Shown here: positions 1,592 to 6,319 of the stretch, piece by piece
Layout of the letters: the number at the start of each line of letters is the position of its first letter
How positions within the stretch are numbered: position 1 is the stretch's first letter
Source: Nitrospirota bacterium
GTDB lineage: Bacteria; Nitrospirota; UBA9217
Assembly: GCA_963751455.1 (NCBI GenBank)
Contig: CAVVUN010000008.1
Coordinates: 64,001 to 128,000 of the forward strand
DNA length: 64,000 nucleotides
Direction of reading: 5' to 3'
Made by a program: the position numbers and the translations under genes
The notes under the pieces: generated by a model
The model's database searches: none
The model's input: only the letters and a program-made list of their open reading frames with translations
What the model was told of the DNA's origin: nothing

Positions 1592-2782
1592 CTAGGCAAA
1601 CTGCCCGGCTGCGTGGCCGGATGCCCAGGCCCAGTGAAGGTTGTACCCGCCAAGCTGCCCGGTAACGTCCAGCACCTCGCCGATGAAGAACAGACCTGCC
1701 ACTTTTTTTGCCTGCATCGTCTTTGACGAAATTTCTTCCGTATCGATCCCGCCTGTGGTGACTTCCGCATTAGTGTATCCTTCGGTTGCCAGCGGCTTGA
1801 TTTCCCAGGCGTGCAGTTGTTCAGCAATGGCCCGCAGGTCTTTGTCGGAATACTGGACCATCGGCTTCGACAGCGCAAAAAGGTCGCACCAGGTTTCCGC
1901 GAAACGCTTTGAAAAAAAACGCCCGAGGAGTGTCTTCAATTCCATCTTACTGCTGCGCTCACCAATCAATAGGGCCTTGACGTCCCTGTCCGGGAAAAGA
2001 TCGATAATAATCGACGTCCCCTTTTTCCAGTACGATGAGGCCTGAAGCACTGCAGGGCCGCTCAGGCCGCGATGCGTGAAGAGAACATTGCCGCGAAATT
2101 GCCTGCCTTCAACTTTTACCGTTGTATCAAGAGATATGCCCGCCAAATCTCGAAAAGAGTTCCGATCATTCGGTGAAAAGGTGAACGGCACAAGTCCCGG
2201 CTTCAGCTCCCTCACCTTCAGGCCGAACTGCCGCGCTACGGCGTGCCCAAAGCCGGACGCGCCCAAGTTCTCGTATGAGAGGCCGCCTGTGGCAATAACG
2301 AGGCTGTCGGTCGAAACGTCGCCACGACCGGTCACGACCTTGAAAGTCTGCTCCTTGCTGATGCCTGTGATCGCGGTTTTGAGCAGGATTTGGACTCCCG
2401 CGCTGCTGCATTCATTCATGAGCATATTCACGATGTCACGTGAACTTTTTGCGCAGAAGAGCTGGCCGGCCTCTTTCTCATAATACGAAATCCGGTGTTT
2501 TTTAAGCAGGCCGACCATGTCATGCGGAGTGAACCGTGCCAGAGCCGAACGGCAGAAATGGGGGTTTGCAGAGAGATAATGATCCGCGGTCACATTCAGG
2601 TTCGTGAAGTTGCATCGCCCGCCTCCGGAGACCAGGACCTTCGAACAGACCCGGTCTGCATGGTCAAGAAGGAGGACCGAACGGCCCCTCTTCCCGCACT
2701 CGCTCGCGCAGAAAAGTCCTGAAGCGCCTGCGCCGACGATGATGACGTCGAATTTCTTAATAAGTTTATCATGTGCGGACAT
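1592..2782 (-). CDS. HI0933/YhiN(BaiN)-family flavoprotein
   Basis: GAGASG FAD motif, SGGGRCNFTN, LFTHRGLSGP, AEVTTGG, GGYNLHWAWASG. Confidence 0.93.
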   Translation of the reverse strand: MSAHDKLIKKFDVIIVGAGASGLFCASECGKRGRSVLLLDHADRVCSKVLVSGGGRCNFTNLNVTADHYLSANPHFCRSALARFTPHDMVGLLKKHRISYYEKEAGQLFCAKSSRDIVNMLMNECSSAGVQILLKTAITGISKEQTFKVVTGRGDVSTDSLVIATGGLSYENLGASGFGHAVARQFGLKVRELKPGLVPFTFSPNDRNSFRDLAGISLDTTVKVEGRQFRGNVLFTHRGLSGPAVLQASSYWKKGTSIIIDLFPDRDVKALLIGERSSKMELKTLLGRFFSKRFAETWCDLFALSKPMVQYSDKDLRAIAEQLHAWEIKPLATEGYTNAEVTTGGIDTEEISSKTMQAKKVAGLFFIGEVLDVTGQLGGYNLHWAWASGHAAGQFA

Positions 2783-2997
2783 GGAAGCACTATACCGAAG
2801 GAGGGGAAAAAAACAAGCAGTTTGTCAGCGGGATTGCTGAGCAGCCAATATGACCAGTATTACGTTGTTAAGTTCGCCTTTTGTAAAAATAGTTTTCATT
2901 GAGAGGGGTAAATAAAGCTTGCTATTTAAGCTCTTTTTCCCTAAAGTCCCATTAAAACGTTGAGTTAGCGAGTGATAAACAAATATGTTATTTCGAC

Positions 2998-3026
2998 TTG
3001 ACAGTTAACCTAAAAGTTAATATTAT
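2998..3026 (+). promoter_or_regulatory. sigma70 promoter with inverted-repeat operator for the TAC operon
   Basis: TTGACA (2998-3003), 17-nt spacer, TATTAT (3021-3026). The spacer holds the inverted repeat TTAAC-N6-GTTAA, as expected for antitoxin autoregulation. The -10 overlaps ATG 3025, so the exact start is uncertain. Confidence 0.65.
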
Positions 3027-3438
3027 GTATATAAAGAAAATAAGAACGATAGATGGTTGCGCCTGGCGGGTATACGCGGCATGCTCGGACCGCGGAGATT
3101 GTCAAGTTTCGGAGTTCCTTTCAAATCAACCTTCAAATCTGGAAGCAAATAGAGATAGATTGATCGCCCTGCTGGATCATGTAGTAAAAAATGGTCCTCG
3201 CCGACTGCCGGCGGATATTTGTCACCAAATAGCGGAAGATATCTGGGAATTCATTGCCGGAAGACTTCGTGTCGCATGGTTCTATGATGAAGGGAAACTT
3301 ATCGTTTGTACTCATGGCTTCATGAAACAATCGCAAAAAACGAAAAAATCGGATATAGAACGAGCATTAAAGGCAAAAACATTTTACCTCAAAGAGAAAG
3401 CGAGCAACAATTTAATATTTTTAAATGATGAGGAGTAA
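3025..3438 (+). CDS. RelE/HigB-family (phage Gp49-like) toxin
   Basis: Size, IWEF...LRVAWFY...IVCTHGFMKQSQKT pattern typical of Gp49-like RelE toxins, toxin-first order. Confidence 0.82.
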   Translation: MYIKKIRTIDGCAWRVYAACSDRGDCQVSEFLSNQPSNLEANRDRLIALLDHVVKNGPRRLPADICHQIAEDIWEFIAGRLRVAWFYDEGKLIVCTHGFMKQSQKTKKSDIERALKAKTFYLKEKASNNLIFLNDEE

Positions 3439-3441
3439 GCG

Positions 3442-3840
3442 ATGAAGAAGCAATCTCTCGCGTCACTGTTTGAAAAAGTTAAAACTAAGGACACTTACTG
3501 GACAAGCAAAGCGATATTGGAGTTCACCTCAGACCTCTATCAGCTTATGAAGCAAAAAGGCTTGACCAAGGCGGATATGGCGCGTTCTCTCAAAACCAGT
3601 CAGGCCTATATGACCAAAGTCTTTAAAGGTGACGTAAATTTTACTATCGATTCAATGGTTCGACTCACCAGGACGCTCGGGGGAAAAGTTCATATACATG
3701 TGGTGGCCGATAATGTAGATGTTCGCTGGTTTGACGTAATCAAAGGGGAAAAGAAACCCGAGGTTTCATGGAAGTCACCTGAAATTGAAGAGATCGAGAG
3801 CGAGGTTTCGAAAGATGTCAAAGGCCCCATTGCGGCTTAA
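3442..3840 (+). CDS. HTH-XRE (HigA-like) antitoxin with C-terminal chaperone-addiction (ChAD)-like tail
   Basis: MKQKGLTKADMARSLKTSQAYMTKVFKGDVNFTIDSMVRL HTH, then a ~44-aa aromatic/acidic tail ending in AA. Confidence 0.82.
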   Translation: MKKQSLASLFEKVKTKDTYWTSKAILEFTSDLYQLMKQKGLTKADMARSLKTSQAYMTKVFKGDVNFTIDSMVRLTRTLGGKVHIHVVADNVDVRWFDVIKGEKKPEVSWKSPEIEEIESEVSKDVKGPIAA

Positions 3841-4264
3841 AAATTATTTCTGTACCGAAGTCTCTTTAAAGGCGAACCCGAATTTTAAATATGAGGACTT
3901 TAAAGAGGAAAATATAGACTTTTCTGTTAAATCAAACGTGCGCGTTGGCACACTTAAACAGAACCCGCTTGATTTTCAGGTCATGCTCGATGTTAAAATT
4001 GAACCTATTGATGAGCGGCCCTTGCCTTATGATGTATCGCTTGCCCTAGTGGGGTTCTTTGAGGTCGATCCCGATTACTCTGCAACTCCCCCTGCCGACC
4101 TCGTCAGAGTGACAGGGTCATCGATCCTGTACAGTGCGGCACGAGAGTTCCTGTTGTCACTCATGGGACGTGGCCCTTGGGAGCCGCTCATGCTGCCCGC
4201 AACATCATTTCTTCACTTCGCCGACAAGAAAAAAGATAAACAGGACGCAGTTGGAAAACCATAA
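3815..4264 (+). CDS. SecB-like chaperone (TAC third component)
   Basis: Start reassigned to ATG 3815 (SD GAGGT). PLRLKNY N-strand, YDVSLALVGFF, SILYSAAREFLLSLMGRGPWEPLMLP match the SecB C-terminal pattern. Overlaps the antitoxin stop. Confidence 0.85.
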   Translation: MSKAPLRLKNYFCTEVSLKANPNFKYEDFKEENIDFSVKSNVRVGTLKQNPLDFQVMLDVKIEPIDERPLPYDVSLALVGFFEVDPDYSATPPADLVRVTGSSILYSAAREFLLSLMGRGPWEPLMLPATSFLHFADKKKDKQDAVGKP

Positions 4265-4341
4265 AGAGCGCCTAGTGCTGATAAGTTCTGTTATTGAATG
4301 ATCTATGGATTAACGTTCAAAGGAAGCAGCAAATATCTTTC

Positions 4342-4635
4342 TTATTTGAAATAACCAACGTCTCTCAGTTTTTGTTCTGCCCTGTCAAGAACTTCTGGCG
4401 CAAAGAGAGTACGGTACGGCTCTCGACGAATGATCGCTTCAACAGACAAATCTAACCGTCCTAATCGCCACAACCTTTCAAAGCCCTCGTAACTCCCCAT
4501 GTATAACCGTTCAATCGTACCGCGGTCACTAAGGAGTCGCATAAATCCAGTGGGGTTATAGCCAAGCGTTTGACATTCACGAGTAGCGCGCAAAAATTCA
4601 TCTCGCAACAGTATTTCCAGATCACGCTTTGACAA
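4342..4635 (-). CDS. small hypothetical protein at the end of the Druantia-like operon
   Basis: Likely TTG start 4635 behind SD GGAG. GYNPTGFMRLL...GFERLWRLGRLDLSVEA motif resembles a conserved ~100-aa family I recall from defence islands. Confidence 0.6.
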   Translation of the reverse strand: MSKRDLEILLRDEFLRATRECQTLGYNPTGFMRLLSDRGTIERLYMGSYEGFERLWRLGRLDLSVEAIIRREPYRTLFAPEVLDRAEQKLRDVGYFK

Positions 4636-4742
4636 AAGGATTTCTCCGCTGCGGTACCTGAACGGCCTTATACATTTGAATTTGCTGGGAGTCATGAGGT
4701 CAAACAGCTCGGAAGCGCCCCCTGCCATCCGATCCCGACGGA

Positions 4743-5153
4743 TCATTTGGAGATCACGCTCCCAAGTCTATTCTTTACCGCGCCCGGCTTCTTTTCTGCC
4801 TCGCATTCCCATACCACAACGACGCGCCATCCCATTTTGCGTAGTGCAAGAACATGTTCTTTATCACGGAGCACATTACGCCTCAGTTTCGATCCCCAGT
4901 ATCGCCGTTTTGTCTTGGGTATTATTCCTTCGCGACATCCCTTGTGTTGATGCCAAAAGCAACCATGAACAAATATCACGGTTTTATACTTAGGCATCAC
5001 AATATCGGGCCGACCGGGCAGATCAGCCCTGTGGAGCCTGAAGCGGTATCCCATACGATGCAGCAAAGACCGCACTATGTGCTCCGGCTTCGTATTTTCT
5101 GAGCGAATGCGAGACATTACATCGCTCCGCTTTTTGGGAGACCAGATATCTAT
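4743..5153 (-). CDS. vsr: very short patch repair endonuclease
   Basis: MSRIRSENTKPE, LPGRPDIV, FVHGCFWH, W..K..RNV.RD, VWECE. In-frame upstream IDIWSPKKRSDV matches the Vsr N-terminus, so the start is ATA 5153 or ATG 5117. Confidence 0.93.
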   Translation of the reverse strand: MDIWSPKKRSDVMSRIRSENTKPEHIVRSLLHRMGYRFRLHRADLPGRPDIVMPKYKTVIFVHGCFWHQHKGCREGIIPKTKRRYWGSKLRRNVLRDKEHVLALRKMGWRVVVVWECEAEKKPGAVKNRLGSVISK

Positions 5154-6319
5154 TTTGTCCTCCGTTTTCCTTTCGATTTCCTGTTTATAGACTCTATCTT
5201 CACTATCAGGGTTTTCATTGAATTTGCCACGACCTTGGCCAATGGCACAGGCACACCATTGCTGACCATTTTAAATGCAGTCGTCAAAAACACATTCTTG
5301 GGCAGAATATAGGATTCTGGAATGCCCTGAATTCGCATCACTTCACGCAGCGAAAGACGCCTCGGTTCCCATGGATGCAAGTGCACTTCATTATTTCCAT
5401 AGCATGCTGTCGGGCTGTAACGGTACCGATGAAGCCTCTTGAACGATTTCCCTGTGCTATCACCTTCTTTAACCCGAAAGAATTTATTCGAGTATGAATT
5501 AAATATGTTATTCGCGTTGGGGATTCTGTTCCGGTCACTTTTCCGCACCAAGCAGCTGGAGACGCAGAGCTTATCTGGTACGTCTTTTGGCCTTTGCGGC
5601 CGCTCGCCCAAACGGACTTGGCTTGGCCATTTATATGCTTTTTTTGCGTTCGAAAACTTACTTGCTGGCCATGGAAACCAAGACGCGTTAGGGTCAAACG
5701 CATGCTCCCGGAAGTAGCGATTAGCGAAACTCTTTTTGATCCCAACAACAAATAACCTCTCGCGGTGCTGCGGTACCCCGTACTCAAGCGCGTTCAAAAT
5801 CCTCTCGTCAATAGCATATCCCGCGCGTTCCAGCTTCCGCTTCACGCGGTTGAGAAACTTGCGGTGCCTCGTGAATCTCGCCAAACCGCTGACGTTTTCC
5901 AAAACAAAGAATGTCGGTTTAATCTGGCATAACAGCTCAACATATGTTTTCGTGAGTCTTCCATTCACTCCGTTATGGCCTTTATGCTGGCCTGCTTGGC
6001 TAAAATCTGGGCATGGAGGAGCACCTACCACTCCGAATAAGTGTGGCCTTTTGCGGGGGAAGGCATCTGCCAGGATTTTTGCATGCGTCAACTCCTCGAT
6101 TGAGGATTCTTCAATAACTATACTGCAGTGCGATTGTTTCCTCCGTCGGCGCCATGATGGGTATGCCTTCTTGTACAGATCCAAAAAAGCGGTGCTATGC
6201 TCATTGACCCATATGACCCGGAAACCCTCCTGTTCAAACCCCATATCCAGGAAGCCTCCGCCAGTGAAGAACGACAATAGAGGAATTGCCTTTGACGCGT
6301 TGTTGTTAGACGAGTGCAT
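5150..6319 (-). CDS. C5 DNA cytosine methyltransferase
   Basis: Motif I FFTGGGFLDMGF, IV APPCPDFS, VI ENV, VIII PQHRERLF, IX RLSLRE...QG.P, X VSNGVP. Start reassigned to ATG 6319, just downstream of the helicase stop. Confidence 0.93.
   Translation of the reverse strand: MHSSNNNASKAIPLLSFFTGGGFLDMGFEQEGFRVIWVNEHSTAFLDLYKKAYPSWRRRRKQSHCSIVIEESSIEELTHAKILADAFPRKRPHLFGVVGAPPCPDFSQAGQHKGHNGVNGRLTKTYVELLCQIKPTFFVLENVSGLARFTRHRKFLNRVKRKLERAGYAIDERILNALEYGVPQHRERLFVVGIKKSFANRYFREHAFDPNASWFPWPASKFSNAKKAYKWPSQVRLGERPQRPKDVPDKLCVSSCLVRKSDRNRIPNANNIFNSYSNKFFRVKEGDSTGKSFKRLHRYRYSPTACYGNNEVHLHPWEPRRLSLREVMRIQGIPESYILPKNVFLTTAFKMVSNGVPVPLAKVVANSMKTLIVKIESINRKSKGKRRTK

Follow-up and report, generated by a model that had tools for sequence, protein, structure and literature searches.

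A toxin–antitoxin–chaperone operon in a Nitrospirota genome: a Glov-type HigBA core with a different chaperone and antitoxin tail

Among described toxin–antitoxin–chaperone (TAC) systems, the one closest in toxin and antitoxin to the locus reported here is that of Geobacter lovleyi (Glov-TAC). Its HigBA pair needs its own chaperone in E. coli, where no other tested chaperone rescued it (PMC5105189, main text), and the text of that report that was consulted contains no phage tests. In the M. tuberculosis system HigB1–HigA1–Rv1957 a Gp49-type toxin comes first and is followed by an XRE antitoxin and a chaperone with the SecB fold (PDB entry 5mtw). The HigA1 tail has about 45 residues, compared with 30 in Glov HigA (PMC5105189), contains two Trp stretches and ends in an aliphatic C-terminal ClpXP degron, VA, and both promoters lie well upstream of higB1 (PMC3968373). 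E. coli NT1F31 HigBAC and CmdTAC share an aromatic ChAD logic. HigBAC has a 96-residue tail with four aromatics, is independent of ClpXP and occupies a prophage site downstream of cI, in the rexAB position; in CmdTAC the toxin CmdT is an ADP-ribosyltransferase and the terminal AA of CmdA is a ClpXP degron (10.1101/2024.02.24.581848). TAC chaperones are able to replace the export SecB (PMC5105189, PMC3968373), and antitoxin–chaperone pairs that have no toxin are already known (PMC3581621, PMC3968373). With regard to regulation, the toxin-first operon hicAB of E. coli has an antitoxin-repressed promoter, P2, which truncates the toxin ribosome-binding site and gives antitoxin only (PMC11594946, PMC5535158), and mqsRA has internal constitutive promoters (PMC6918082).

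The stretch of DNA that we analysed, referred to below as the window, comprises 64 000 nucleotides from a Nitrospirota bacterium. Its plus strand carries, at 3025–4264, an operon of three genes for a toxin of the Gp49/HigB type, an antitoxin of the XRE type and a chaperone with the SecB fold. All of the elements of the module claimed in a preliminary description were found in their places, namely the toxin, the antitoxin with a tail that ends in GPIAA as quoted, the SecB-like gene and an operator within the promoter spacer. A correction is needed for the toxin start, which is not TTG 2998. This TTG forms the −35 box, the homologues begin at the M of MYIKK, and homology places the start at ATG 3025; the first codon of the toxin primer of PMC5105189 likewise corresponds to ATG 3025.

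The toxin ORF (3025–3438, plus strand, 137 residues), which was identified by Pfam and homology, matches PF05973 (Gp49) with an E value of 6e-16 and a score of 58.7 bits against a cut-off of 23.9. The profile of the toxin family matches the solved HigB structure PDB 6af3 (E 5e-7), the L-R of its 'ELR' motif being replaced by F-I in our family; no Mtb HigB1 chain was returned at E ≤1 when the profile was compared with PDB chains. On the strength of these matches we assign the window toxin to the Gp49/HigB group of the RelE superfamily as a predicted mRNase, ribosome-dependent mRNA cleavage being a property of this family of toxins (PMC11980606). No Shine–Dalgarno motif precedes ATG 3025 in the window. 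A restart of toxin translation further downstream is unlikely, since the next in-frame ATG, GTG or TTG is codon 46 and only ATA or CTG occur earlier.

The HigA-type antitoxin (3442–3840, plus strand, 132 residues) is preceded by a strong Shine–Dalgarno sequence, GAGGAG, at 3430–3435 and exceeds the Pfam cut-offs of both HTH_37 and HTH_3. Its AF2 model has a helical core to about residue 80 (78), with pLDDT values below 50 over residues 100–132. Among Nitrospirota Gp49/HTH pairs of more distant kinship, five that lack SecB (L050, L052 and L054–L056) end directly after the strand that matches residues 83–89, and for this reason we set the candidate chaperone-addiction tail at residues 89–132 (44 residues; 3706–3840). 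The antitoxin thus carries a disordered aromatic C-terminal extension which is missing from two-gene Gp49/HTH homologues. In the window this tail holds W96, F97, W110 and the terminal Ala-Ala. W96 is invariant in a 39-row alignment from which divergent and decayed tails were left out, and 38 of the 47 intact TACs have a Trp among the tail's first 15 residues. Our prediction of a complex between four SecB copies and tail residues 86–132 scored 0.02 against a mark of 0.32, with controls not folded, and carries no weight in either direction.

The chaperone ORF (3815–4264, plus strand, 149 residues) begins with an ATG inside the end of the antitoxin gene, giving a 26-nt overlap, and has a Shine–Dalgarno sequence, GAGGT, at 3802–3806. 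Its score against Pfam SecB, 24.7 bits, is just below the cut-off of 26; its family profile matches solved SecB with an E value of 3e-13. The AF2 model, built from a 136-sequence alignment, has a pLDDT of 93.6 and shows four strands and a long helix, and in a Foldseek search of this model ranks 1–10 were all H. influenzae SecB, E. coli SecB or Rv1957, the Rv1957 structure 5mtw being matched at E 6.5e-7. The third ORF does have the SecB fold that had been proposed for it. There is also a weak PADLOC match to PD-T4-9_C (E 1e-4). The clade to which the chaperone belongs has 1116 representatives at E ≤0.001, and the window SecB used alone as a query had no match in viral contigs. It is the sole SecB-family gene found in the genome of the window. 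We considered whether it could be the housekeeping export SecB and rejected this, as it does not stand alone and is not kept across the lineage; as a query it found matches in three of the 36 other genomes of the organism's family, and in the tree it groups apart from stand-alone SecBs.

To place the locus next to Glov-TAC, we searched 239 genomes with the Glov chaperone primer of PMC5105189 and obtained a match in one, at locus L185, which also fits the other primers and the gene lengths in that report. The window and L185 toxins share 45% identity over 134 residues from residue 1, and the antitoxin cores share 42% over 78 residues. The chaperones share 32% over 84 residues in the C-terminal half only, and the tails are unrelated, so that the validation of the Glov system carries over to the toxin–antitoxin core alone. 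The two loci have the same toxin and antitoxin families, the same gene order and the same operator, behind which the toxin start follows at a distance of 2 nt in Glov-TAC. They differ in that the Glov chaperone belongs to another clade, its 30-residue tail lacks the WF motif and ends in AQG, and its best promoter, judged by eye, leaves a leader of about 9 nt with no start-codon overlap. By sequence comparison, then, the toxin–antitoxin ('warhead') family is that of a validated TAC, on which the window places a different chaperone and tail pair. The resemblance to the Mtb system lies in the toxin type and position, the antitoxin type with its Trp-bearing tail of similar length and aliphatic end, and the chaperone fold, the sequences themselves being remote. 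HigBAC and CmdTAC share the aromatic tail logic with the window, HigBAC having in addition a site like that of the prophage relatives described below and CmdA the terminal AA; their differences are the long, ClpXP-independent tail of HigBAC and the toxin of CmdTAC.

Loci for a wider survey were gathered by antitoxin and toxin alignments (search patterns derived from the core), by chaperone and by promoter pattern. The antitoxin clade comprises 79 loci, or 60 once 90% duplicates are removed, with members in Nitrospirota, Desulfobacterota, Gammaproteobacteria, Myxococcota and prophages. A SecB gene comes next in 47 of the 53 non-redundant loci that have a complete antitoxin and at least 400 nt downstream (40 of 46 when loci picked by promoter pattern are dropped), the toxin precedes the antitoxin in 54 of 55, and the operator lies upstream in 52 of the 55 related loci with room for it. 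As the order of the three genes and the operator recur over several phyla and in prophages, the module is not a product of chance. The antitoxin was found at E 1e-20 in three of 64 genomes of the organism's family. Plasmid searches gave two unannotated toxin matches and one SecB and nothing more; a prophage relative used as the query had no match in a phage collection, nor any at the DNA level among complete E. coli genomes.

Six of the surveyed loci lack a SecB gene in the next position (L159, L043, L155, L154, L047 and L018). L018 and L047 have full-length toxin–antitoxin pairs, and in L154 both the tail and the toxin are truncated. In L159 (564–1121, minus strand) the third gene is by eye a divergent SecB-like gene that falls below the profile and Pfam thresholds, which suggests another chaperone swap on the same toxin–antitoxin core. 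L043 (663–1160, plus strand) has an antitoxin and a short toxin remnant followed by an overlapping gene of about 147 residues with no Pfam hit, possibly an alternative chaperone; its tail keeps the aromatics and ends in NA. L155 (449–1917, minus strand) has the same operator and a toxin, then an antitoxin HTH fused to a further domain and a HEPN gene. By eye the fused domain, which has no Pfam hit, resembles a minimal nucleotidyltransferase, so that HigBA has apparently merged here with an MNT–HEPN pair.

A decayed copy of the operon provides a further view of the tail. This Nitrospirota locus, L006 (the same locus as L002), lies at 4900–5682, with a DinG-like helicase on one side and a type I restriction system on the other. 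A deletion that begins just past the start codons has removed the toxin, and about 140 nt across the end of the antitoxin and the N-terminus of SecB are missing, while the promoter and operator are intact. Read in frame, its tail has the changes W96R, F97P, V99A, I100A and W110R plus a stop, compared with an antitoxin core in which 29 of 30 conserved hydrophobic residues are still hydrophobic and one has turned polar. The erasure of the aromatics after loss of the chaperone is what chaperone addiction predicts, although this is one clear event and not a statistic. In P0015/P0016, W96 and F97 were lost separately. The W-type tail also follows the chaperone phylogeny, occurring in 35 of the 36 rows of the window's chaperone clade (support 98/92) and in one of the nine TAC rows outside it, in a 48-row tree that contains non-independent kin and leaves out short or cut chaperones. 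The decay of L006 points to W96, F97, V99, I100 and W110 as the addiction residues, which can be tested directly.

The terminal Ala-Ala is more difficult to interpret. The preliminary description took it for a ClpXP-type degron. This is plausible, since clpX is present in the window's genome (above the cut-off of a family search) and CmdA provides a precedent, but the same letters are tied to the frame of the overlapping gene: GCG GCT TAA at the antitoxin end doubles as L-R-L in the SecB frame. A tail ending in AA is seen in 18 of 26 loci with a long SecB 'PL(R/Q)L'-frame overlap and in two of 21 without. Because the AA end is partly dictated by this frame, it does not count as independent evidence of a degron. 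A final Ala occurs in 24 of the 26 tails with the long overlap and 10 of the 21 without, against a background of 9.4% (3497 long frames of the window's genome), and 13 of the 47 tails do not end in Ala. These counts show a small aliphatic residue to be favoured at the tail end, with AA itself as weak evidence. We lean slightly towards an involvement of ClpXP in turnover of the window antitoxin.

The promoter of the operon shows an unusual arrangement with respect to the toxin gene. A consensus scan identified a strong sigma-70-type candidate, here called P2, at 2998–3026 on the plus strand (TTGACA at 2998–3003, a 17-nt spacer and TATTAT at 3021–3026), which has 11 of 12 consensus bases and is the best of four sites in the region 2500–5000. 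Its −10 box shares its last AT with the toxin ATG, and the predicted start at about 3033 lies inside the toxin ORF. The spacer is filled by the operator palindrome TTAACC-TAAA-AGTTAA (3005–3020; TTAACC-N4-(G)GTTAA in general form), the predicted site of the antitoxin HTH. The same scan found a weak upstream candidate, P1, at 2960–2989 (plus strand; TTGAGT-18-TATGTT, 8 of 12, predicted start about 2996), and no other candidate found would include the toxin start codon in its transcript.

Comparable arrangements were sought in the related loci, from which those picked by promoter pattern (8 of 78 being TACs) were excluded as biased. In the 45 unselected loci the start predicted from the best site falls at +8 in 15 (four of the +8 loci are close Nitrospirota kin), at +5 in four, at other positive positions in three and at −5 to −13 in 19, with none in four; it is never at 0 and never leaves a leader longer than 13 nt. 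The 20 sites that score at least 9 divide into 11 at +8 and nine at −9 to −13. In 28 of 52 loci (seven of them pattern-picked) the operator is directly adjoined by a −35 hexamer with at least five of six matches, compared with 71 of 1323 control windows, and in those 28 loci the start codon follows 20–25 nt past the hexamer, short of the 28–31 nt needed. Of 321 strong sites in the window's genome, nine are at +8 (one being the TAC locus) and 53 at −3 to +1, and this peak calibrates the offset of the predicted starts. From its sequence the peak suggests that the organism may make many leaderless mRNAs. A leaderless toxin mRNA from P2 was considered and rejected, as the ATG lies inside the −10 box and the leaderless-type sites of the genome peak at −3 to +1.

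A Shine–Dalgarno word precedes one of 52 toxins compared with 34 of 59 antitoxins. Taken with the predicted start inside the toxin gene, this paucity suggests transcription of antitoxin and chaperone alone, as for hicAB P2. The window promoter resembles hicAB P2 in belonging to a toxin-first operon; it differs in that its −10 box holds the start codon, where hicAB P2 truncates the toxin ribosome-binding site, and in that the predicted transcript adds the chaperone. Judging from the consensus matches, we slightly favour the view that the P2 transcript would skip the toxin in this way. We also note that the right arm of the operator contains AGGT in 39 of 54 loci, 4–9 nt before the toxin start (for example L005:4562–4577), and a degraded AAGT in the window; this AGGT might also serve as a weak ribosome-binding site. 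In the literature within reach, from which most subscription papers were missing, we found no toxin start codon described inside a toxin–antitoxin promoter and no Nitrospirota TAC.

The distance from dNK to panC is at most 1.5 kb in 9 of 19 relatives, the two being directly adjacent in six of these, which indicates that the 13.5 kb between these genes in the window are an insertion. It holds an HI0933 gene, the TAC and a convergent operon with Druantia-type genes on the minus strand at 4342–14 742 (DruF-like, DruL-like, DruE helicase, DruM methylase, Vsr and a 134-residue hypothetical protein, from PADLOC and Pfam). The 'defence island' of the preliminary description is this 13.5-kb insertion, in which the HI0933 gene is not a defence gene. 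The dNK–panC junction (1446–14 954 in the window; L162–L180) is an insertion hotspot in the organism's family, different inserts being found there in other members, one restriction-enzyme-like and one DinB-like by eye. The convergent operon mixes type IV components (DruE4 is the best match, 1744 bits; DruL4, E 1e-28) with a type II DruM methylase (E 3e-136); Druantia type IV has been defined as lacking DruM (PMC8565338). The DruF-like ORF (661 residues) starts with a hydrophobic, membrane-like stretch followed by a long low-complexity linker, and the Atlas gave no name for the 134-residue protein. The neighbours of other members were surveyed at 21 related loci with 180 ORFs, of which 88 were scanned; the TAC genes and the majority of short ORFs were not among these. 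Restriction–modification genes flank 5 of the 14 non-viral TAC loci, one more has a SNF2/PLD gene and one an integrase and CII. L005, the closest intact relative, and several others have only housekeeping or unrecognised neighbours. Among eight viral loci, an S24 cI-like repressor is found no more than about 1 kb upstream of the TAC in six, and the other two have a P2-like gpD as neighbour. These surroundings, with no DruE-like gene seen at any of the 14 non-viral loci, support a defence role for the family and argue against a tie to Druantia.

In our view, the most consistent reading of these data is a three-gene TAC operon with a chaperone-addicted antitoxin, a HigB toxin and a chaperone that phage would divert, to which we give a probability of roughly 0.8. 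Dependence of the window antitoxin on its chaperone is very likely. The TAC identity is well supported by the SecB fold, the linkage across the family, the absence of the tail from chaperone-less pairs, the loss of aromatics in L006 and the homology with the Glov toxin–antitoxin pair; the module is a real and intact TAC of a family known before. Alternatively, the HigBA pair might be a conventional one that the SecB-like gene accompanies as a passenger, with a tail that arose as a neutral by-product of gene overlap: the last eight antitoxin codons do overlap SecB, AA follows from the SecB frame, and L018, L047, L154 and L155 have the pair without SecB. We consider this very improbable, because the overlap begins only after W96, F97 and W110, residues that show conservation across phyla and have selectively disappeared where the chaperone is damaged, the tails of SecB-less cases are altered, truncated or fused, and the homologous Glov pair needs its chaperone (PMC5105189). 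It is likewise highly improbable that the TAC specifically guards or backs up the convergent Druantia operon and is set off by inhibition of Druantia. The two do share an insertion, and the TAC is adjacent, 77 nt from the last gene of the operon, but none of the 14 other non-viral TAC loci was seen to have a DruE-like helicase beside it, the neighbours differ freely from locus to locus, no gene near L005 is recognised as a defence gene and no shared regulatory element was seen. The earlier proposal that the TAC backs up the convergent helicase system is not supported by these observations.

The purpose of the module is a more serious question. A true TAC could serve in sensing proteostasis or export stress, or in maintenance of the inserted DNA by addiction, and not in phage defence. 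The Mtb TAC is stress-induced and has been proposed as a sensor of export load (PMC3968373), the chaperone is its genome's only SecB, the TAC sits in an insertion at a hotspot, and many relatives have housekeeping neighbours. We nevertheless regard this alternative as unlikely. Prophage copies are concentrated downstream of cI-like repressors, restriction systems flank 5 of 14 chromosomal TAC loci, the patchy presence of the antitoxin fits a mobile defence gene, and the E. coli TACs that were tried against phage gave protection (10.1101/2024.02.24.581848). From where relatives sit, a role of the TAC in phage defence is the better-supported option, and a phage trigger for the window TAC is somewhat more likely than not.

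Under the preferred reading, in which the operon is a phage-responsive TAC, the SecB-fold chaperone would bind the aromatic disordered tail and keep the antitoxin intact, and the prediction is that the HigB mRNase remains neutralised up to the point at which the chaperone is diverted, most likely by a protein of an infecting phage. Once released, the antitoxin would be broken down, probably by ClpXP acting on the terminal Ala-Ala, after which HigB would cut translated mRNA and the infection would be aborted. The antitoxin is likely to repress the operon at the palindrome within the strong promoter. With the P2 start about 8 nt past the toxin ATG, derepression would refill antitoxin and chaperone and not toxin, which would be supplied at a low level from the weak upstream promoter and without a ribosome-binding site. 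That the −10 box and the toxin start codon overlap, and do so in relatives as well, could explain how toxin-first operons achieve an excess of antitoxin, a possibility that is directly testable.

The preliminary description presented the locus as a TAC from a little-studied lineage; the lineage is indeed little studied and the family was already known, so that the module takes a known TAC system into the Nitrospirota. The chaperones of such systems are swappable sensors, and the clade to which this one belongs adds new and therefore useful ones. As a tentative proposal, with the odds somewhat against it in full, we suggest a widespread prophage-associated anti-phage TAC clade in which Glov-type HigBA has its own chaperone and tail and an undescribed safety design, a repressed promoter that hides the toxin start codon within its −10 box or immediately after it. 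If this is true, derepression would make only antitoxin and chaperone, and release of the toxin would be purely post-translational and self-resetting.
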